From a virus (lineage: Duplodnaviria > Heunggongvirae > Uroviricota > Caudoviricetes), in the IMG/VR virus record IMGVR_UViG_2711768037_000005, positions 1 through 64,000 of that record: 64,000 bases of DNA. One strand, given 5' to 3'. Numbering within the stretch: position 1 is the stretch's first letter; each line of letters starts with the position of its first letter. The translations under genes were made by a program, and so were the position numbers. Below, one piece after another: positions 11,958 to 43,017 of the stretch. The notes under the pieces are model-generated. The model did not search any database and was not told where the DNA came from. It worked only from the letters and a program-made list of their open reading frames with translations.

Positions 11958-12029
11958 GATGGTGTAGCTCAGCGGTAGAGCAGTTGGCTGTTAACCAACT
12001 GGTCGGTGGTTCGAATCCACCCACCATCG
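11958..12029 (+). tRNA. tRNA-Asn (anticodon GTT)
   Basis: Acceptor GATGGTG/CACCATC, D-arm TAGCTCAGCGGTAGAGCA, anticodon loop CTGTTAA, T-loop GGTGGTTCGAATCCACC, CCA encoded. Confidence 0.8.
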
Positions 12030-12037
12030 CCAATTTA

Positions 12038-12121
12038 GGGGAGTTAGTCCGTAGAGGTAGCGGTGTAGACTGTAAATCTACTGTCATGGCGACTCGGGTG
12101 GTTCGACTCCATCACTCCCCA
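12038..12121 (+). tRNA. tRNA-Tyr (anticodon GTA), long variable arm
   Basis: Acceptor GGGGAGT/ACTCCCC, anticodon stem-loop GTAGA-CTGTAAA-TCTAC, long variable arm, T-loop TTCGACT, CCA encoded. Confidence 0.75.
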
Positions 12122-12128
12122 CCAAATT

Positions 12129-12201
12129 GCCGGTTTAGCTCAGTTGGTAGAGCGGCTGCCTTGTAAGCAGGATGTCAGCGGTTCGAGTCCGTTAACCGGC
12201 A
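12129..12201 (+). tRNA. tRNA-Thr (anticodon TGT)
   Basis: Acceptor GCCGGTT/AACCGGC, D-arm TAGCTCAGTTGGTAGAGC, anticodon loop CTTGTAA, T-loop GGTTCGAGTCC, CCA encoded. Confidence 0.75.
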
Positions 12202-16644: not shown

Positions 16645-16658
16645 GGTAAGTGCTTACC
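16645..16658. promoter_or_regulatory. candidate operator palindrome GGTAAGTGCTTACC in the divergent control region
   Basis: Perfect 6-2-6 inverted repeat; same core GTAAGTGCTTA recurs at 40641-40651 and, reverse-complemented, at 28410-28420. Confidence 0.4.
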
Positions 16659-27289: not shown

Positions 27290-28363
27290 ATGGCAAAAGC
27301 AAAATCCGCACTGGCACTTGCTCTGAAAAAGAAAATCGGTAGCAACGACGAAATTCAGAAAGTAACTCATTGGATTGATACAGGCTTTCCACCGTTAAAC
27401 AAAGCTATTTCTGGTCGTTACGATGGCGGCTTCCCATGTGGTCGTATCGTCGAAGTATTCGGTCCTCCAAGTGCAGGGAAAACGTTCCTTGCAACAGCAG
27501 CGATGATCTCCGCTCAAAAACAAGATGGTCTGGCGGTATTCCTCGATCATGAAAACAGTTTTGACGTTGGCCTGGCTGTAGCCAATGGCCTGAACGCAGA
27601 TGAGGATGACGGTCAGTGGGTATACAAGCAGCCTGACACCTTCGAAGACTCTGTAGAGTTGATCGGCACAATACTTAAATTGGTACGTGATGAAGAGCTT
27701 ATCCCTGAATCAGCACCTATCTGTATCGTGGCTGACTCTCTTGCGTCTATGGTTCCGAACTCCAAAGCCGAGAAGTTCGAAAAGATGGCTGAAGGCACTG
27801 CCAAAGACAAAGATCAGCTAAACATGAACGACAATACGGCACTGGCTCGTGCGACGAGTGCGAACTTCCCTACTCTGGCTTTGTGGGCACGCAAATACAA
27901 CGCCTGCATCATATTCTTGAATCAGGTTCGCACAAAAATCGGTGTAATGTTTGGCGACCCTACTACGTCGCCAGGTGGAGATTCACCGAAGTTCTACGCT
28001 TCTGTACGTATCCGTCTTGGTGCATCGGTGATGAAGGATGGTAAAGAGAAGATCGGCCAGGACGTAGGCGCAGAGTGCATCAAAAACAAAGTTGCACCAC
28101 CTTATGGCAAATGCACCTGGAAATTCTACTTCGATCCTACTCGTGGCCTCGACGTTATCGAATCGCTCGTCGAGTACATGCTGGAAGAAGGATACCTGCC
28201 AAAGAACGCCAGCGGGCGAGTTGAAATTGGTGACAAGAAATACACCAAATCGCAGATCGTCGAGATGTATCGGGAGAAGCCACTGGCTGAAATCATTGCG
28301 GCTTTGCAGGCAATCGACGACCGAAGAGCAAAAGACAACCCCACCGAGTCAGTAGAAGAGTAA
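27290..28363 (+). CDS. RecA/UvsX-family recombinase
   Basis: GRIVEVFGPPSAGKTFLATAAM matches the RecA Walker A region (E. coli GRIVEIYGPESSGKTT). Confidence 0.8.
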   Translation: MAKAKSALALALKKKIGSNDEIQKVTHWIDTGFPPLNKAISGRYDGGFPCGRIVEVFGPPSAGKTFLATAAMISAQKQDGLAVFLDHENSFDVGLAVANGLNADEDDGQWVYKQPDTFEDSVELIGTILKLVRDEELIPESAPICIVADSLASMVPNSKAEKFEKMAEGTAKDKDQLNMNDNTALARATSANFPTLALWARKYNACIIFLNQVRTKIGVMFGDPTTSPGGDSPKFYASVRIRLGASVMKDGKEKIGQDVGAECIKNKVAPPYGKCTWKFYFDPTRGLDVIESLVEYMLEEGYLPKNASGRVEIGDKKYTKSQIVEMYREKPLAEIIAALQAIDDRRAKDNPTESVEE

Positions 28364-33190: not shown

Positions 33191-33237
33191 ATGCAAACTG
33201 ACTGCGGCACGTTCCGCAGTCATATTTCATAGTCGTC

Positions 33238-33770
33238 ACCGCTGACAGCATACACAATCAACTGCCGCTGATAGCATATCGAGAGTCTATCTCACCGCTC
33301 ACAGCATACTTTACTCGATTTTTTACCGCTGACAGCATACTTAAGACATTGCATGAATAATGTGTACCGGTATGGGTATAACCAGAACAAAATTACCGCT
33401 GGCAGCATACGAAGGTCTGACATATGCCATTAATTACCGCTGATAGCATATCCAAACAAAAATTCCTCAATAAAACACCGCTGACAGCATACGTTCTATC
33501 AGGGAGCAGCAGGCAATAAATGCCTTTCACTACAAGCAATCAGCGCAATAGCAATAGAATGTTAGTGAGCGCAAACCTATATGGAATGCACTCTTCGAGG
33601 TTAGTAACCACTGGGGAGGTATGACAGAGCATTGAGTGGTGATAGATGATTTACCGCTCACAGCATACGTTCATCTCACTATACCGCTGGTAGCATATCT
33701 TTAACCGTTCACAGCATACATTTCAGAAAAATAGCCGCTGATAGCATACATTTCACCGCTGACAGCATAT
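33238..33770. repeat. iteron array downstream of rep: 12 copies of a 16-bp repeat ACCGCTGACAGCATAC (variants) in two clusters
   Basis: Copies start at 33238, 33264, 33294, 33325, 33395, 33436, 33477, 33653, 33683, 33704, 33734, 33755; irregular spacing; last copy overlaps the rep stop codon. Confidence 0.7.
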
Positions 33771-34864
33771 CAAAGCAGTTTGAGACTATTGGAAAGGATC
33801 TCAATCATCTTGATATTTTCAGGCGTCAAATTCTGCGAAAGTTCAGTTATCTTGTTGATAATGTTCTGTTTAGCATCAATTTCCCCGGCTTTCTCATCTG
33901 GTTTTTTGGGTTCGATGTCTTCAGGTTTTGGCGGTGCGACTTTAAGTTTTGGATTACGGCTGTGAATCTGGATATAGATCGACCGCCCTCGCTTAATCTC
34001 GCTGTATTCGAGATAGCCCAAATCTTGGAGAGCTTTTAAGCCGTTACGTATAGTCTGATTCTGCGAGCTTACATTCCTGCTACTCAAATTGAGTCGCGCA
34101 CGCAATCGAGCAAGCGATACCGGCGCAGGCTTGGTTGGAAGACTTTCGATGAAGGTGTACAGAGCCTGTGCTGTTTCTTTGCGTGGTAGCTTATTGATAA
34201 CCTTTAACTGCAAAAGAACCTTATGGTCAAAGCGATATAGTTCGGCCAGCTTCGGTTCTGCATAGAACACCACCGTATCTTTCTGCTCGTTGTAGTCCAC
34301 GCTATTGATGAGGTGCACCATCAGAAGCGAGATCTTGTTAGAGCCGTCGACGTTCTTTTCTTCATACGTTCTCTGGAAAGACAGAGTTGTACGCATGATC
34401 TTCAAAAGACTGTTTGTAAGCCGGTCGCGGAGTGTTTTGCGGATCTGTGACGATGGATAGCCACAAAACTTCGCAAATTTCGTGATGCTTAACTCGACAC
34501 GACCATTAGGTTCGCCGTATTCTGCCAGCGAACGCACAACGCCCACCCACGTTTTGAAATCATGATCCATGTCCAGGCGAGGACCGGTTATCTTGATATC
34601 GGAATAGCCTTCAGAACGGGCTACTTCGAGCTGGACAAGCTCCTTTGAAGCATCGATCTCATTTGGCTTGTTACGTTTACTGTATTTTGTTCCCTTAAGC
34701 GTGGGGACGAACAACCCCAGTCGCATCAACGCAATTGGTTGGACTGTATTGTTGCTATTAGGGACAAGTTCCCCTGTGTACAATTCAAGGGAACCTTCTT
34801 CAAAGTTGTCGATGTTATCTTCTACTTCTTTGTTATTTTTACCTTTTTTATTTTTTGTGGACAT
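33770..34864 (-). CDS. iteron-binding replication initiator (Rep), putative
   Basis: Only large minus-strand gene; flanked on both sides by iteron arrays; start taken at Met of MSTKNKKGK because the longer ORF-track N-terminus runs into the upstream iterons. Confidence 0.65.
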   Translation of the reverse strand: MSTKNKKGKNNKEVEDNIDNFEEGSLELYTGELVPNSNNTVQPIALMRLGLFVPTLKGTKYSKRNKPNEIDASKELVQLEVARSEGYSDIKITGPRLDMDHDFKTWVGVVRSLAEYGEPNGRVELSITKFAKFCGYPSSQIRKTLRDRLTNSLLKIMRTTLSFQRTYEEKNVDGSNKISLLMVHLINSVDYNEQKDTVVFYAEPKLAELYRFDHKVLLQLKVINKLPRKETAQALYTFIESLPTKPAPVSLARLRARLNLSSRNVSSQNQTIRNGLKALQDLGYLEYSEIKRGRSIYIQIHSRNPKLKVAPPKPEDIEPKKPDEKAGEIDAKQNIINKITELSQNLTPENIKMIEILSNSLKLL

Positions 34865-34884
34865 GTGGACACCTTTGTCATTCA

Positions 34885-34986
34885 ACCGCTGACAGCATAC
34901 TTGATTTGCCGCTGACAGAATACCAAAAACAGTTGGCAGCATACGGTGAACCGCTGACAGACTATCAATTACCGCTGACAGCATAC
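34885..34986. repeat. iteron array upstream of rep (about 5 copies, one degenerate)
   Basis: ACCGCTGACAGCATAC at 34885 and 34971; variants at 34908, 34931 and 34950. Confidence 0.65.
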
Positions 34987-35830: not shown

Positions 35831-36084
35831 CCCTCCAGATCGTATATTGGCGTAGATAGAATCTACGCCCCCTCAAAATAGCTCTCATAGCGTTCTACAG
35901 TGATCCTGTCTTATTTTTAGTCATACAGACAAGCAAAGTTGCGCCACGATAAATAGGTATATACTTACTTATAAATTTTGTATATTAAGGCGCTCGTTTC
36001 ATTCCTAACATACCGTTATGCATAGTTGTTTACCTCCTCATTGCTCTTAGAATTTGTATCAAAATAAACACAAAGGAAAAATAC

Positions 36085-37170
36085 ATGACTTTGCCATACG
36101 GCGTCATTTCTGACTGCCACTACCACAAATGGGATGCGTTCTCCACGACGAACGCTGAGGGGCTTAACTCCAGACTTGAAATACAGTTGGAAGCAACGAA
36201 AGAAGCAGCCATCGCCATGAAGAAGGCCGGTTGTAAGTACATGTTGGTTGCCGGTGATACATTTCACGTCCGAGGAACTGTGTCCCCTTCTGTTTTGCAT
36301 TACGTAACTGAAACGTACAAGTGGATTATCAACGAGCTTGATCTGACAGTAGTAATGCTGGCCGGTAATCACGATCTTGAAACCAACGATTCAGTATATA
36401 GCGCCAACGCAGCAGCATCGCTGAGTTCTATCGGCGTGGTAATCGTATGTGGCAAGCGCCCACACTCAATAAAAATTGGTGATGTAACTGTCCACCTGAT
36501 TAGCTGGCGTAACAATCATGCAGAGCTTATCAGCGATCTGAAAGCATTACGTAAGAGCGTAGAAGGTGATAATCATGACGTTGTTATCCATACATCCATT
36601 AACAAAGCCATTCCAACAATGCCTGACGTCGGTATCGATGCGCAGGAGTTAAAGGATATCGGCTTTCGTCTCGTGCTTAGTGGGCATTACCACAACCACA
36701 AAGAGGTCATTCCTGGAGTTATCAGTGTCGGTGCACTGACCCATCAAAATTGGGGAGATGTTGGATCTCTGGCTGGTTACATGATCGTAAACCCGGACGG
36801 CAGTTTCAGTCACTACGAAACCAGTGCGCCTAAATTCATTAACCTAGAAGATTATGTTGCCGATGACCAAATTCGCGGCAACTACGTGCGTTTCCGCGCC
36901 GTAATTGAGAACGATGAAGAAGGCATTAAGTACCAGAATATCCTCAAAACAATGGGCGCAAAAGGTGTCGTGTGCAACTTCATCCGTAAGTCATCAATGA
37001 TGGAAGGTACAGCAAGCACAACGGAAACCAGCAAAATCGATAGCTTGGGAGAGTCGGTATCTGCTTATTGCAAGATTGTCCACGATACTGACGGCGGATT
37101 TGATCTGAGCAAGTTGGATATTTTGTGTCAGGAAATCCTCACCGAAGCGGAGAGTTCGGAGTCTGTGTGA
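36085..37170 (+). CDS. SbcD/Mre11-family metallophosphoesterase nuclease
   Basis: Calcineurin-like motifs VISDCHYH, VAGDTFH, LAGNHDL, GHYHNH. Confidence 0.75.
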   Translation: MTLPYGVISDCHYHKWDAFSTTNAEGLNSRLEIQLEATKEAAIAMKKAGCKYMLVAGDTFHVRGTVSPSVLHYVTETYKWIINELDLTVVMLAGNHDLETNDSVYSANAAASLSSIGVVIVCGKRPHSIKIGDVTVHLISWRNNHAELISDLKALRKSVEGDNHDVVIHTSINKAIPTMPDVGIDAQELKDIGFRLVLSGHYHNHKEVIPGVISVGALTHQNWGDVGSLAGYMIVNPDGSFSHYETSAPKFINLEDYVADDQIRGNYVRFRAVIENDEEGIKYQNILKTMGAKGVVCNFIRKSSMMEGTASTTETSKIDSLGESVSAYCKIVHDTDGGFDLSKLDILCQEILTEAESSESV

Positions 37171-37399
37171 GGCAAAGTCGTTATGGAAGCTTTCGAGACT
37201 TTGCCATCACGATGAAAAGACTTGAACGAGGCCAGACGGTGATGTTTCACAAGCCCTACCCGCCACAAGGAAATCCCGTAGCGTTTTATCTTGGAAGGTT
37301 AACCAGAAAAGGCGTATTGAGGCGCAGATCCTTCCCAGCGCATACGGAGTTCAGATTGAAAGAAGGCCAAAAACTAACACACGGTATCAGAGGTGTTAT

Positions 37400-39316
37400 A
37401 TGAAGTTTTTAAAACTCCAGGTTGAGAATTTTATGGCTATCGCCAGCGCGGAGGTCGAGTTAGATCAGCGTGGTTTAGTGCTCATTCAGGGTGTTAATAG
37501 TGATGATAGTTCCGCATCAAGTAATGGCTCTGGGAAGTCAACTCTAATGAATAGCCTGATGTGGTGTCTTTATGGCGAAACAGCTCATGGTGTGAAGGGT
37601 GACGATGTGTTGTCTACCGACCATGAAAAGAACTGTCGTGTTGCAGTAACCATCGAGGATGAAGGCAAGAGATATGCGATCATTCGTCACCGTAAACACA
37701 AAGAGTTCAAAAATCGTCTTATCGTTCGTGGTGAAGATGGCGATATGACGAAAGGCAAAGATGCGCTGACGCAGGAGTTCGTCGAGCGTCTGATCGGTGC
37801 ATCTAAAGAGGTTTTCATGGCTTCCATCTATGCGAGCCAAGAAGCTATGCCAGATCTACCTGGAATGTCCGACAAAAACCTCAAAACCATCGTAGAAGAA
37901 GCCGCTGGCGTTGACAGACTGACACGCGCCTACGCTATTGCTCGTGAGCGAGCTAATGCAGCTGCCGCACGTATGGATGTGGTTAAAACCAAATTGGAGT
38001 CGACAATCTCGACCATTGAGGCAACACAGTCAGAAATTGAGTCCGCGAAAGCCTCCTCTGAATCATGGGAACAAGAGCGTTCTAAACGTTATGACGATGC
38101 CTTGGCTGGGCTGGCAAGTGCCGAAGTTGAGTTAACGGAAGTTGAACTTGAGATCCGCACTCTTCCCGAACAGATCCGTGATACCGAGAAGGCAATCGAA
38201 AGTGAGCGCAAAAAGTTAGCCTCAAAAGAAGAACATGACGCCAAGTTGCTCAAAGTGCGTGGTGCGATAACTGATATTCGGGCAAGCATCAAAGCTACAG
38301 AAAATAGTCAGGCTGATGCAATGAACCGCGCGCGTAATTTTAAGACCAAAGCAGAAGAGGTTGGTACTAAAGTGGGATCACCATGCCCTACTTGTGGCAA
38401 AGCCTACTGCGAAGAAGATCTATCAACGGTGAAGGAGAATTTCATTGAACAAGCACGTCAGGAAATTGGTCAGGCGAAGACACTTGCAGAGGCAATGGCT
38501 AAACACAAAACGAATCTTGAGAAAGCGTTAAGCATTGAGTCTGCCCTTGTTAAAACGACACCTGATGTAACGGCTATCATTGCCCGGATTGAAGAGCTTA
38601 CGAAACAACTCTCATCTTTGCGTCATCGTGAGAAGGAGGTTGTTGCTATTGAGTCTCTTGTGACTCGTGCTCGTACTGAGGTCGATCGTATATCAAAAGA
38701 GATTAATCCGTTTATTGCTCTTATCGCCAGACACGAAGATAACTTGGTATCCAGTAAGTCTACCTTCAAGTCCTTAAAAGATGAGTTGAAGGCTATTCAG
38801 GAACAAACGTTGCTATTGGAAAAAGCTCGTCAGGTCTACTCTCCTGCCGGGGTGCGTTCTCATATTTTGACGTCTGTTACGCCTTTCCTGAATACACGCA
38901 CTGCCGAGTATCTCAATACGTTGTCTGACGGGAATATTACTGCTGAGTGGTCGACGATGGATGTCACTAAAAAAGGTGAGTATCGCGACAAATTCAACAT
39001 TAGTGTGCAGAAGAAAGGTTCAAGTAAGTCGTTCCAGACCCTCTCTGGTGGTGAGAAGCGGAAGGTTCGCATTGCGTGTTCTTTGGCATTGCAGGATCTG
39101 GTTAGTAACCGGGCGAGTAAAAACATCGATTTGTTTATCGGCGACGAAATTGACGATGCACTCGATACAGCCGGTCTTGAACGCCTCATGGGTATTCTGG
39201 AGTCCAAAGCTCGCGAGCGAGGTACTGTGCTGATTATCTCCCATAAAGAGATGAAGTCATGGTTCCGGGAAACTATTACGCTGGAAGTTAAAGAGGGGCG
39301 CAGCTATGTCGTTTAA
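37400..39316 (+). CDS. SbcC/Rad50-family ATPase
   Basis: N-terminal Walker A NGSGKSTLMNSLMWCLYGE; central coiled coil with CPTCGK zinc-hook-like motif; C-terminal signature LSGGEKRKVRIACSLA and Walker B FIGDEIDDALD. Confidence 0.75.
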   Translation: MKFLKLQVENFMAIASAEVELDQRGLVLIQGVNSDDSSASSNGSGKSTLMNSLMWCLYGETAHGVKGDDVLSTDHEKNCRVAVTIEDEGKRYAIIRHRKHKEFKNRLIVRGEDGDMTKGKDALTQEFVERLIGASKEVFMASIYASQEAMPDLPGMSDKNLKTIVEEAAGVDRLTRAYAIARERANAAAARMDVVKTKLESTISTIEATQSEIESAKASSESWEQERSKRYDDALAGLASAEVELTEVELEIRTLPEQIRDTEKAIESERKKLASKEEHDAKLLKVRGAITDIRASIKATENSQADAMNRARNFKTKAEEVGTKVGSPCPTCGKAYCEEDLSTVKENFIEQARQEIGQAKTLAEAMAKHKTNLEKALSIESALVKTTPDVTAIIARIEELTKQLSSLRHREKEVVAIESLVTRARTEVDRISKEINPFIALIARHEDNLVSSKSTFKSLKDELKAIQEQTLLLEKARQVYSPAGVRSHILTSVTPFLNTRTAEYLNTLSDGNITAEWSTMDVTKKGEYRDKFNISVQKKGSSKSFQTLSGGEKRKVRIACSLALQDLVSNRASKNIDLFIGDEIDDALDTAGLERLMGILESKARERGTVLIISHKEMKSWFRETITLEVKEGRSYVV

Positions 39317-40049
39317 ATTAAGCCGCTCGCAGTTTTTGCAGGTATTTGCAGTGATGCAGTCGATAAAACTGATCAATGGGCATACTTCCAATGGTGCGGC
39401 TCCACGTATTCTGTGGGGCAGCAACAATATTGACGGAGTACAATTCGCCGCGTTGCTTGGTCTAATATCCGAGACACCATTGATGCAAAGTTTGAAATCA
39501 CTACCACCTGGATGTATTGCGCCGATCCTGATTAATCCTTTTGTTGAGGGGGGATATCTTCCCAACGTCGGGCCTGGGTTTATTGCATCCCATGAAACTG
39601 AAGATCTTAACATTAATAGCGAAGGGTTCTTTGGGGGAATGGGTGCGCATCACTGTATGGCTTTCACGAACCTTATTCGACTTGCCAATAAGCGGGTGGA
39701 TAGTTTGGCATCGCCAGGTGATGCTTTTACTGGTTTCCTTATCCAAAGGAGGGATAAAAAGTACAGTGCGGACAAACTACAGTTTGTTGGTAAGTATGGA
39801 GAAATGGTAGAAATCGAACTTCAGCTCCCTCATGTTTTAGCAAACGATAGTGCAGACAGTCGGAGGCTGTTGGGCATCATGCGTCATTTCATAGCAAGTG
39901 GCGTTAAACATGCCGTAGATAAACGTGTCACGCAGGAAAATGAGTATTCAGACTTTGCAAACTATCCCCAACCAACGTTGCAAACGGCAATAGTAACCAA
40001 TTCGTTGGAGGCGAGATTATTGGAAAACCCTATATGGGGAACATGGTAA
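39306..40049 (+). CDS. hypothetical protein
   Basis: ORF track; overlaps SbcC stop. Confidence 0.45.
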   Translation: MSFKLSRSQFLQVFAVMQSIKLINGHTSNGAAPRILWGSNNIDGVQFAALLGLISETPLMQSLKSLPPGCIAPILINPFVEGGYLPNVGPGFIASHETEDLNINSEGFFGGMGAHHCMAFTNLIRLANKRVDSLASPGDAFTGFLIQRRDKKYSADKLQFVGKYGEMVEIELQLPHVLANDSADSRRLLGIMRHFIASGVKHAVDKRVTQENEYSDFANYPQPTLQTAIVTNSLEARLLENPIWGTW

Positions 40050-40058
40050 GGAGACTAT

Positions 40059-40628
40059 ATGAGTAAAAAAATCAGCGTAGTTGGTGTTGATCCCTCAATG
40101 AGTAACTTTGGGCTTGCTGTGGGCACTTTAGACCTTGAAACGGACGAACTTGAGATTCACGGCCTTACTCTTGTTGAGACTAAAGCGGGGAGTAACAAAA
40201 AGACAGTTCGTGTGAATAGCGACGATCTGCGCCGTGCCAGTGAAATATGGCGTGTTGCGAAGCCAATCATTGATAAGGCAAATATGGTTTTTTGTGAGCT
40301 ACCGGTTGGGAGCCAAAACTCTCGTTCGCAGACGTCTTACGGTATTTGTATCGGTGTACTTGCGTGTGTGGATAAGCCATTGATCCAGGTCACTCCAAAC
40401 GAAATCAAGCATTTTGTTGGCAATAAACTTACTACATCGAAAGAAGAGATTATCCAGTGGGCTACGAAAAAACACCCTAAAGCACCGTGGCTGCGTCGTA
40501 AGCAATCGGGACAGGATGTTCTCGTGAACAAAAACGAACATTTGGCTGATGCGGTGGCTGCCATCCATACCGGTATGCAAACGGATCAGTTCCGCCAGGT
40601 GCGCGATGTTCTTAAGTCTCTCATTTGA
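40059..40628 (+). CDS. RuvC-like Holliday junction resolvase (RNase H fold), putative
   Basis: N-terminal VVGVDPSMSNFGLAV resembles RuvC ILGIDPGSRVTGYGV; acidic CELPVGS; C-terminal EHLADAVAAIHTG resembles RuvC ADALAIAITH. Confidence 0.5.
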   Translation: MSKKISVVGVDPSMSNFGLAVGTLDLETDELEIHGLTLVETKAGSNKKTVRVNSDDLRRASEIWRVAKPIIDKANMVFCELPVGSQNSRSQTSYGICIGVLACVDKPLIQVTPNEIKHFVGNKLTTSKEEIIQWATKKHPKAPWLRRKQSGQDVLVNKNEHLADAVAAIHTGMQTDQFRQVRDVLKSLI

Positions 40629-40701
40629 TTTCATTGATAGGTAAGTGCTTATCTATTAACATGGGCCACTATATTTAGTGGCCCTCTTTATTTGGTGATA
40701 C

Positions 40702-43017
40702 ATGATAAGCATCGTAAAACGTAACGGCCAAACAGAGCCGTTATCCGAAGAAAAATACAACCGCGTCGTAATGTATGGCGTAGAAGGCATTCGTGGCGTA
40801 AGCGCATCCGCTGTAGCAATGGGAGCTGCGACCAGCATTTTTGATGGGATGACCACCAGCCAGTTGCATGAGGCTTTGGTTAAATCTGCCGCTGATTTGA
40901 TCTCACCAGAAGCACCAAATTACTCACAGGTGGCTGCCTGCCTGAACATTTTTAAAATCCGCAAAGATGCCTTCGGTCGTTACGACTATCCGAACTTCTA
41001 CCAACACATTGTCAAGAACGTTAACAAGGGCGTTTATGACAAGGATTTGCTGACACATTATTCGTTTGAAGAGATCGAAGAACTCGGCAATTACATTAAG
41101 CCGAAACGTGACGATCTTTTTGGCTATGCAGCTACGGTGCAGTTGCAAAGCAAATACCTCGTTCAAAACCGTGTTACAGGTGAGATTCATGAGGGGCCGC
41201 AACATATCTATATGCTGGTAGGCATGTGTCTGTTCCAGAATTGGGAAGACGACTGCGCTGGCAAAACACGTATGGAGATGGTCAAAGGTTTCTATGACGT
41301 TACAAGTACGTTCAAACTGTCTCTGCCTACACCAATCATGGCCGGCGTCCGTACTCCAACCCGTCAGTTCTCCAGTTGTGTGCTGATTGAGTCTGGCGAT
41401 AGTCTGAAAGGGATTAGTGCAGCTTCAGCCGCAATTATCGACTACGTTTCACGTCGTGCTGGAATTGGTATTGGTTTTGGCCGTATCCGTGCGCTGGGCA
41501 GCGAGATCCGCAATGGTGAAGCCACCCATACCGGAGTTATTCCATTCCTGAAGCATTTCCAGACGGCTGTTAAATCTTGTTCGCAAGGTGGTGTTCGTGG
41601 TGGCGCAGCAACAGCGTTTTACCCGATCTGGCATCTTGAAGTTGAAAGTCTGCTGGTGGTGAAAAATAACCGTGGTATTGATGAAAACCGCGTTCGCCAT
41701 CTTGATTACGGCGTCATGAGTAACCGTCTAATGTACCGTCGACTCGTCAGAAGCGAGAACATCACTCTGTTCAGCCCGCATGATGTGCCTGATATGTACG
41801 AAGCCTTCTTCACAGACCAGGATCTGTTTGAAAAGCTGTACCATAAATACGAAGCCGATGATTCAATTCGCAAGAAGTCAGTACCTGCCATTGAGCTGTT
41901 CTCATCTCTGATGCAGGAACGAGCGTCCACGGGCCGAATTTATATTGCGAACGTCGATCATATTAATGAGCATGGCGCTTTCATTCCTGCTCTTGCACCT
42001 GTCCGCCAGTCAAACCTGTGCATGGAGATCACTCTACCCACTCGTCCACTGGCATTTACCGACGACCCGAACGGTGAGATCGCGCTATGCACTTTATCCG
42101 CTTTTAACCTCGGAGCCATCCGTTCACTGGAGTCTCTTAAAGAGGTGGCGTTCTATGCCGTTGCTGCACTGGATTCGTTACTGGATTATCAAGACTATCC
42201 GATGGAGGCAGCCGAAGTGCCTGCCAAAGCTCGTCGTAGCTTGGGAATTGGTGTAACCAACTTTGCTTATTACCTGGCAAAGAATGGCGTTCGTTATTCT
42301 GATACCGCTGGCAATAAACTGGTGCATGAAACGTTCGAAGCTATCCAGTATTACCTTCTTGACGCCAGCTGCCGACTTGCCGAAGCAAAAGGTGAGTGTG
42401 ACTGGTTTGAGCAGACCAAGTACGCAATTGGTCAGTTGCCGATCGACCATTACCGTTCTTCATTAGACGAAAGTGGCGAAACCAACTTTGAGTTAAAGAT
42501 GCCGTGGGAAGAACTGCGTGAACGTATTGCAAAATACGGCCTTCGCAACTCCACACTGACGGCACAAATGCCATGCGAGACTTCCAGCCAGATCACTAAT
42601 TCCACCAACGGCATCGAACCGCCTCGTGGCCCGGTGTCAGTGAAATCTTCTAAGGACGGCATCGTCAAGATGGTCGTGCCTGAGTTTGAAAAACTGAAGG
42701 AACAGTATGAATACCTGTGGGATATGCCGGACAACCGCGGCTATCTGACAAAGGTGGCGATCATCCAGAAGTTCTTTGACCAGGCTATTTCAGCCAATAC
42801 CAACTATGACCCTTCTCGCTTTGAAGGCGATAAAGTCCCAATGATGACGCTACTGTCAGATTTGCTTCTCGCCTACAAGATGGGAGTTAAAACGCTTTAC
42901 TACCACAACACCAGAGATGGGGCAGGAAAGCGTGATGACGACGAACCGCAGAATCCACTGACGCAAGCTGTAGCCGTCGAGCCAGAAGATGAGTGCGACG
43001 GGGCCTGCAAAATCTGA
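40702..43017 (+). CDS. nrdA: ribonucleotide reductase class Ia alpha subunit
   Basis: Near-colinear with E. coli NrdA by eye (e.g. LVQNRVTGEI, QFSSCVLIE, GGVRGGAATAFYPIWHLEVESLL, C-terminal CxxxxACKI tail); 771 aa. Confidence 0.9.
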   Translation: MISIVKRNGQTEPLSEEKYNRVVMYGVEGIRGVSASAVAMGAATSIFDGMTTSQLHEALVKSAADLISPEAPNYSQVAACLNIFKIRKDAFGRYDYPNFYQHIVKNVNKGVYDKDLLTHYSFEEIEELGNYIKPKRDDLFGYAATVQLQSKYLVQNRVTGEIHEGPQHIYMLVGMCLFQNWEDDCAGKTRMEMVKGFYDVTSTFKLSLPTPIMAGVRTPTRQFSSCVLIESGDSLKGISAASAAIIDYVSRRAGIGIGFGRIRALGSEIRNGEATHTGVIPFLKHFQTAVKSCSQGGVRGGAATAFYPIWHLEVESLLVVKNNRGIDENRVRHLDYGVMSNRLMYRRLVRSENITLFSPHDVPDMYEAFFTDQDLFEKLYHKYEADDSIRKKSVPAIELFSSLMQERASTGRIYIANVDHINEHGAFIPALAPVRQSNLCMEITLPTRPLAFTDDPNGEIALCTLSAFNLGAIRSLESLKEVAFYAVAALDSLLDYQDYPMEAAEVPAKARRSLGIGVTNFAYYLAKNGVRYSDTAGNKLVHETFEAIQYYLLDASCRLAEAKGECDWFEQTKYAIGQLPIDHYRSSLDESGETNFELKMPWEELRERIAKYGLRNSTLTAQMPCETSSQITNSTNGIEPPRGPVSVKSSKDGIVKMVVPEFEKLKEQYEYLWDMPDNRGYLTKVAIIQKFFDQAISANTNYDPSRFEGDKVPMMTLLSDLLLAYKMGVKTLYYHNTRDGAGKRDDDEPQNPLTQAVAVEPEDECDGACKI

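Follow-up and report, generated by a model that had tools for sequence, protein, structure and literature searches.

A predicted DNA-end-processing and junction-resolving operon in an SSU5-like phage-plasmid

In phage T4, the gp46 and gp47 proteins resect DNA ends and so feed gp32, UvsY and UvsX (PMC3016280). The corresponding genes of a T4-like phage are transcribed in the order 47, 46.2, 46.1, 46, with the Mre11-type nuclease first and small open reading frames (ORFs) between it and the ATPase. A similar arrangement is found in a 64,000-nucleotide stretch of viral DNA (Caudoviricetes; IMG/VR record IMGVR_UViG_2711768037_000005, positions 1 to 64,000), referred to below as the window. Positions 36085-40628 of the window carry genes for an SbcD/Mre11-type nuclease, an SbcC/Rad50-type ATPase and a RuvC-family resolvase, together with two orphan genes. 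An earlier, sequence-only reading of this DNA had likened the module to gp46/gp47, and the likeness in gene order holds. The module is best regarded, with a probability of about 0.8, as a DNA-end-processing and junction-resolving operon of an SSU5-like phage-plasmid.

The SSU5 supergroup is a well-described group of phage-plasmids (PMC7969092; PMC9928086). The window is part of one of its temperate members, a near relative of Escherichia phage Cyrano (pLF82, a phage-plasmid carried by E. coli LF82), because the 4.7-kb region of the module is 98.9% identical to Cyrano and 76.5% identical to Salmonella phage SSU5, and because it recurs on plasmids. Phage CMS-2020a is also 98.9% identical over this region. 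A blastn search of PLSDB recovers 862 plasmid records that match the module, and in 731 of them the match covers 80% or more of its length. Most of the plasmids are non-mobilizable, and the inspected examples, of about 105-115 kb, come from Klebsiella, Escherichia, Enterobacter, Yersinia (pMT1), Salmonella, Citrobacter and Cronobacter. The window is not Cyrano itself, as the two are no longer collinear upstream of about 35 kb, and the recombination genes were therefore re-checked directly in the window. The Cyrano GenBank record already labels the homologues 'SbcD-like', 'SbcC-like' and 'RuvC resolvase', the SSU5 record annotates both nuclease subunits, and on many plasmids the names assigned by the Prokaryotic Genome Annotation Pipeline are 'exonuclease SbcCD subunit D' and 'AAA family ATPase'. 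The module is thus already known as an ordinary phage recombination operon, with all three enzyme assignments public.

Nuclease, ATPase and resolvase

The region comprises five plus-strand genes that overlap or nearly abut, each found where the sequence-only reading had placed an ORF. None of the five is due to chance: all match PHROG families (in gene order, PHROG 100 at 4.4e-92, 37951 at 1.5e-38, 77 at 4.5e-165, 2117 at 1e-127 and 159 at 3e-57) and all have ratios of non-synonymous to synonymous substitution (dN/dS) of 0.0-0.25 between lineages.

The first gene (36085..37170, plus strand) encodes the 361-residue SbcD/Mre11-type metallophosphoesterase. Pfam Metallophos matches it at 8.3e-10 (39.8 bits against a cut-off of 21.5), and residues 1-359 match PHROG 100, 'SbcD-like subunit of palindrome specific endonuclease'. 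Phosphoesterase motifs I-V (D10-x-H12, G57-D58, G94-N95-H96-D97, H169 and G200-H201-x-H203) are invariant in six lineages, and the C-terminal third, residues 240-361, in which a capping domain and Rad50-binding helices would be looked for, is conserved within the group. The best and sole PDB sequence match is the nuclease MPE (E 0.03), whose role is unrelated. Homology to Mre11 is settled by profile-sequence alignments made with hhalign, in which the nuclease family aligns with gp47 of a T4-like phage at a probability of 94.6% (E 6.6e-8) and with the 'recombination exonuclease A' of a Twort-like Staphylococcus phage (Mre11_N, cd00840/COG0420) at 97.7% (E 1.3e-12). Since its scores lie far below the cut-offs of the curated cellular models, the protein is a phage-type Mre11 and not an orthologue of the host SbcD. 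The ATG is preceded, at about 8 nt, by an AAGGA ribosome-binding site. The gene is linked with that of the ATPase by a common strand and, through the small gene between them, by overlapping start and stop codons.

The partner subunit (37400..39316, plus strand) is a protein of 638 residues that is best classed as a short, phage-type member of the Rad50/SbcC ABC ATPases with coiled-coil arms. Pfam AAA_23 (8e-17) and SMC_N (6e-14) both match above their cut-offs, PHROG 77 is annotated 'SbcC-like', and the Rad50 structure 3qf7 matches the N- and C-terminal ATPase lobes at 1.5e-11. The ATPase motifs are a P-loop NGSGKST at residues 41-47, a signature LSGGEKR (SGG at 549), a Walker B motif DLFIGDE from 578 and an H-loop SH at 614. 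The region between the lobes matches segments of SMC/Rad50 coiled-coil models in NCBIfam, and the CPTC of the zinc hook lies mid-protein at residues 329-332 (codons 38384..38395, plus strand), its CxxC being kept in eight of eight aligned lineages inside a block VG.PC..CGK.Y. By tblastn, the Rad50-like proteins of Herelleviridae are 26-36% identical and a T4-like gp46 is 20% identical over 97% of the length of the ATPase. Both the Mre11-like nuclease and the zinc-hook ATPase of the sequence-only reading are therefore upheld. As a separate observation, the P-loop region (residues 33-47) is lengthened by an unusual stretch of about nine residues rich in Ser and Asp (GVNSDDSSASSNGSGKST), where Rad50 of T. 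maritima reads GP---------NGAGKSS.

An ATPase of this type could also belong to an anti-phage defence system, either as LmuB of Lamassu or as a component of another SMC-like system. The PADLOC model of LmuB matches it at 5.5e-23, those of PbeC, DndD and JetC match more weakly, and a survey has predicted 'Lamassu-Fam' systems in some elements of the SSU5 supergroup (10.1101/2025.09.12.675607). The same survey found none in pHCM2-like elements, and the module does occur in Salmonella plasmids related to pHCM2, which may itself carry it. The match to PHROG 77 is vastly stronger than that to LmuB, the partner of the ATPase is a gp47-like Mre11 nuclease, and the four neighbouring proteins match no PADLOC model, so that neither LmuA nor LmuC is encoded beside it. 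As only the ATPase matches, Lamassu-type defence is rejected, and a defence function of any SMC-like kind is extremely improbable.

The last gene (40059..40628, plus strand) encodes a protein of 189 residues matching PHROG 159, 'RuvC-like'. Pfam PF02075 does not match this protein even at E <= 10, the NCBIfam RuvC model gives 16.7 bits against a cut-off of 163, and hhalign against the single E. coli RuvC sequence reaches a probability of only 2.6%, with the first Asp and Glu aligned with D11 and E80. A profile built from 44 homologues matches RuvC and nothing else in PDB (E 0.04), and PF02075 recognises seven of these homologues (44-52% identity) at E <= 0.01, the best of them at 1.3e-6. Because the sequence evidence is weak, the protein was modelled. 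The AlphaFold (AF2) model has a predicted local distance difference test score (pLDDT) of 92.5 and a predicted template modelling score (pTM) of 0.89. When it is compared with PDB by Foldseek, ranks 1-14 are all RuvC-family enzymes (E 1e-8 to 2.5e-5; target-normalised template modelling score, TM, 0.58-0.78), from D. radiodurans, T. thermophilus, P. aeruginosa, E. coli and Lactococcus phage 67, together with a chloroplast resolvase. D11, E80, H161 and D164 are invariant in the 44 homologues; His can fill the third catalytic position, as it does in RuvC of T. thermophilus. In its fold and its active site, the protein is thereby confirmed as a RuvC-family Holliday-junction resolvase. The SbcD, SbcC and RuvC assignments with which the analysis started are thus all borne out by searches with domains, profiles and folds.

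Role in recombination and its alternatives

Several proteins with which such enzymes could act are encoded in the window. These are a gp32-like single-stranded-DNA-binding protein (SSB; Pfam gp32, 1.7e-66), a RecA/UvsX-like recombinase (27290-28363; PF00154, 2.3e-42; PHROG 97) and, upstream of the operon, a FEN-type 5'-3' exonuclease. The genes for the SSB, the recombinase and a possible UvsY-like protein are situated about 8-12 kb upstream of the operon. This set of genes, with the T4-like gene order, makes end resection and junction resolution in the manner of T4 our best reading of the module, and in this context the fit with recombination-dependent replication claimed by the sequence-only reading is a reasonable one.

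The proposed mechanism follows that of T4. The 361- and 638-residue proteins would form a phage-type Mre11/Rad50 complex of the SbcCD or gp47/gp46 kind. Rad50 dimers bridged by the zinc hook would bind DNA ends, and ATP hydrolysis would drive the endo- and exonuclease activities of Mre11 in end cleaning and resection. The resulting 3' single strands would be coated by the gp32-like SSB and passed to the UvsX/RecA-like recombinase, possibly with the UvsY-like protein as mediator, and strand invasion would then prime recombination-dependent replication and repair broken forks during lytic growth. A dimer of the RuvC-family enzyme would cut Holliday junctions and branches in concatemers and so enable packaging. 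The parts list itself is established, in gene content, homology, catalytic and structural motifs, the RuvC fold, an operon-like layout, purifying selection and retention in hundreds of phage-plasmids; complex formation, the enzyme activities, lytic expression and the link to recombination-dependent replication are inferred.

A number of points weigh against this scheme. The curated models for the cellular enzymes are not passed, TIGR00619 and NF008206 giving the nuclease 12.7 bits against 77.65 and 11.8 against 450, and TIGR00618 and NF002244 giving the ATPase 75.2 against 478.5 and 92.4 against 847; it is these scores that argue against orthology with host SbcD and SbcC. The match of the UvsY-like protein is weak (1e-4). 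The element itself supplies a RepA/iteron replicon, DnaE, a helicase and a primase, and therefore its replication need not depend on recombination. The operon stands directly upstream of nrdAB, mazG, thyX and dhfr, a position that a role in nucleotide salvage would fit equally well. Finally, no experimental work on the module was found in the literature searched.

The position of the operon leads to the suggestion that the nuclease mainly breaks down host DNA and so feeds the salvage genes next to it. Immediately downstream are nrdA, nrdB, a gene for a MazG-like pyrophosphohydrolase, thyX, a polynucleotide kinase gene and dhfr; T4 mutants in genes 46 and 47 fail to degrade host DNA, and one T4-like record calls gp46 a 'host-DNA degrading endonuclease subunit'. 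Against this, a temperate element maintained as a plasmid at about five copies per cell (PMC9928086) cannot degrade the DNA of its host constitutively, and the presence of RuvC in the operon, with the SSB and recombinase nearby, points to recombination. The two functions are not mutually exclusive in T4 and may coexist here, although host-DNA breakdown as the main task of the nuclease is unlikely.

The plasmid state of the element raises another alternative. On the minus strand, repA (33770-34984) encodes an initiator of the Rep3/RepB family and is flanked by 15 iterons with the core ACCGCTGACAGCATA, 11 of them downstream and four upstream of the gene (33232-33769 and 34879-34985). Together they form the replication origin of the plasmid, some 1.1 kb upstream of sbcD. 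The module might accordingly serve plasmid maintenance, with RuvC resolving plasmid multimers or recombination intermediates and the SbcCD-like enzyme removing hairpins and cruciforms or repairing breaks in a plasmid prophage of low copy number. The closeness of the replicon is in favour of this, as is the retention of the module in almost every SSU5-like plasmid, among them Y. pestis pMT1, an element maintained as a plasmid. However, multimer resolution and partition are already provided for by a separate integrase-type recombinase and ParA, both nuclease subunits have their closest relatives in strictly lytic phages (Herelleviridae and T4-like), and a dispersed palindrome upstream of the operon suggests control in common with other operons of DNA metabolism. 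Maintenance may coexist with the phage recombination role, but as the principal function it is very unlikely.

The recombinase differs between the window and Cyrano, being 357 residues long in the former and 779 in the latter. The window protein aligns in two separate segments with PHROG 9666, whose profile has 779 positions; the best segment pairs residues 65-357 with positions 487-779. The Cyrano protein therefore carries an insertion of about 420 residues near residue 64 that the window element lacks. The insertion is possibly intein-like.

Orphan genes, operon boundaries and a dispersed palindrome

Between the two nuclease subunits lies a small gene (37167..37403, plus strand) for a very basic protein of 78 residues, with an isoelectric point of 11.7 and 17 Lys/Arg against four Asp/Glu. 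The sequence-only reading had described a small basic ORF at 37125-37403. The gene and its basic character are borne out; its start is not, as 37125 is simply the first possible start codon of the maximal ORF of 92 residues. The most likely start is the GTG at 37167, because it overlaps the sbcD stop codon (GTGTGA), because relatives in Cronobacter (ATG) and Klebsiella (GTG) start one codon later, aligned with 37170 and also overlapping the sbcD stop, and because the PHROG 37951 profile of 77 positions begins at the same place, about 37167-37170. The GTG is preceded by GGAG. At its other end, the stop codon overlaps the sbcC ATG (ATGA), so that the small gene is coupled in translation to both of its neighbours.

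Across six lineages, dN/dS of the small gene is 0.10-0.22 in its own frame and about 1 or more in the other two, and the substitutions fall mostly at third codon positions. This pattern rules out a conserved untranslated element and is that expected of a real gene under purifying selection. The 229-nt spacing of sbcD and sbcC is constant. Not every lineage has the small gene, however: in K. oxytoca pCAV1099-111 (L009 2571-2574) and Moellerella pW18-2-b (L010 3090) the gene is absent and sbcD and sbcC overlap directly. In pMT1 of Y. pestis (L007 1381-1647) it stops four codons early and the overlap with the sbcC start is lost. The protein has no match in Pfam (E <= 10), NCBIfam, PADLOC or PDB, whether searched as a single sequence or as a profile, and no relatives were detected beyond these plasmids (21 proteins found). 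Homology to gp46.1 or gp46.2 of T4-like phages was considered and rejected, the hhalign probability being about 0.1%.

The unlabelled gene that the sequence-only reading noted after the ATPase is present as an ORF of 247 codons (39306..40049, plus strand) and remains an orphan. It belongs to PHROG 2117 ('unknown function') and has no match in Pfam (E <= 10), NCBIfam, PADLOC or PDB, again with single sequence and profile. When 1.84 billion representatives were searched exhaustively with a profile of the family, only 25 matches were returned, all of them members of the same family or fragments of members. The slot is a fast-evolving one, the protein being 43-48% identical to its versions in Salmonella, Klebsiella and Cronobacter, against 81-88% for the neighbouring genes. 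Its dN/dS of 0.06-0.25 nevertheless indicates purifying selection. The AF2 model (pLDDT 67, pTM 0.73) shows an alpha/beta body and a tail, residues 201-247, that is predicted to be disordered (pLDDT below 50). This tail ends in E-x-x-L-x-E-x-P-x-W-x-x-W, of which E235, L238, E240, P242, W244 and W247 are invariant. No fold match was obtained in PDB or BFVD, all hits having E >= 0.08 and query-normalised TM <= 0.20. In K. oxytoca pCAV1099-111 and Moellerella pW18-2-b, the most divergent plasmids examined, the slot between sbcC and ruvC holds a different orphan of 232 or 288 residues, with no detectable homology to the 247-residue family and no PHROG match.

The enzymes thus look like a conserved scaffold around variable slots. 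The 78- and 247-residue proteins, co-translated with the ATPase, are most simply regarded as lineage-specific accessory or modulatory proteins. A more specific suggestion, made because both genes are translationally coupled to the Rad50-like gene, is that they belong to the phage Mre11/Rad50 machine itself, as subunits or modulators peculiar to the lineage. The basic protein could be a DNA-binding adaptor, and the 247-residue protein, with its disordered tail and invariant terminal motif, a docking factor or else a decoy for a host nuclease or defence system. This reading is decidedly unlikely, but if it were true the two proteins would be functional analogues of the poorly understood 46.1 and 46.2 of T4 or of eukaryotic Nbs1 and CtIP.

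The first 11 nt of the 247-codon gene are shared with the end of sbcC, and 9 nt separate its own end from the ruvC start. A terminator scan finds downstream of ruvC a hairpin rich in G+C and resembling a terminator, GGGCCACTA-TATT-TAGTGGCCC, with a T-run behind it (40663..40694, plus strand). As RNA it folds with -25.6 kcal/mol (z = -3.9), hairpin and U-tract are kept in seven of eight lineages, and nrdA starts directly after it at 40702. The hairpin probably marks the 3' boundary of the five-gene unit, and 36085-40628 looks like one transcription unit. A scan upstream of sbcD found no sigma-70 consensus promoter.

At the 5' boundary, a palindromic motif of 20 bp, ATAGGTATATACTTACTTAT (35953..35972), lies 118 nt 5' of the sbcD start codon and is a candidate operator or regulatory element. 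A second copy, GATAGGTAAGTGCTTATCTAT (40636..40656), lies between ruvC and nrdA just before the hairpin. Both of these palindromes are conserved in SSU5, in Salmonella and Klebsiella and in pMT1 of Y. pestis; in the copy at 40636..40656, a few base pairs keep pairing through two-sided changes across the aligned lineages. The pattern ATAGGTANNNNCTTA of this dispersed motif, ATAGGTA-N4-CTTAyCTAT, is present 12 times in the window, where chance would give 0.71. The other sites, each of about 15-20 nt, are at 16647, 19301, 28409, 32451, 45352, 50184 and 57370, and nine of the ten distinct sites are intergenic, 20-130 nt upstream of plus-strand genes. Such a distribution suggests either a multi-operator repressor regulon, comparable with the C1 operators scattered over P1, or an RNA hairpin common to the sites. 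An Rfam scan of the window found only three tRNAs, clustered on the plus strand outside the operon (11958-12201), where the Cyrano record has tRNA-Asn, tRNA-Thr and tRNA-Ser.

Comparison with known systems

As a discovery the module carries little weight, its genes being public for Cyrano and, in part, for SSU5 and hundreds of plasmids. What the analysis adds is a structural footing for the RuvC assignment and evidence that SSU5-type phage-plasmids, among them pMT1 of Y. pestis and plasmids of clinical E. coli and Klebsiella isolates, carry a recombination toolkit in the style of T4 and SPO1. The two conserved orphans of the operon and the dispersed palindrome are the only loose ends left.

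The gene order, sbcD and then sbcC, is that of E. coli, and the architecture of a metallophosphoesterase with a zinc-hook ABC ATPase is also shared with the SbcCD of that host. The window proteins nevertheless fall far below the equivalog cut-offs, and a cellular SbcC has about 1,040 residues (the TIGR00618 model has 1043 positions) as compared with 638 here, from which a much shorter coiled coil is expected. The resolvase resembles RuvC of E. coli, T. thermophilus, D. radiodurans and Lactococcus phage bIL67 in its RNase H-like fold (target-normalised TM 0.64-0.78) and in the acidic and His catalytic positions D11, E80, H161 and D164. It differs from them in sequence (14-21% identity), it exceeds cellular RuvC in length by about 30 residues, and it has no RuvA or RuvB partner encoded nearby.

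With T4 gp47/gp46 the module shares the nuclease placed before the ATPase, small overlapping ORFs between them, a short coiled coil with a CxxC hook, and a genome that also encodes a gp32-like SSB and a UvsX-like recombinase. The proteins are, however, only about 20% identical, a single basic ORF of 78 codons not homologous to gp46.1 or gp46.2 takes the place of the small genes, and the element is temperate and plasmid-borne. T4 resolves its junctions with endonuclease VII (gp49), which is not a RuvC-fold enzyme.

The closest relatives outside the SSU5 group are the recombination exonucleases A and B (RncA/RncB) of Herelleviridae, the SPO1-, Twort- and K-like phages. These are strictly lytic phages of Firmicutes, they have no small gene between the two subunits, and their resolvase is annotated with a restriction-endonuclease-like domain rather than as RuvC. 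Their ATPase is nonetheless 26-36% identical to that of the window over its full length, their nuclease is the one aligned at 97.7% probability, and in the Twort-like Staphylococcus phage the genes for exonucleases A and B abut in that order, a resolvase gene and nrd genes following a few genes further on.

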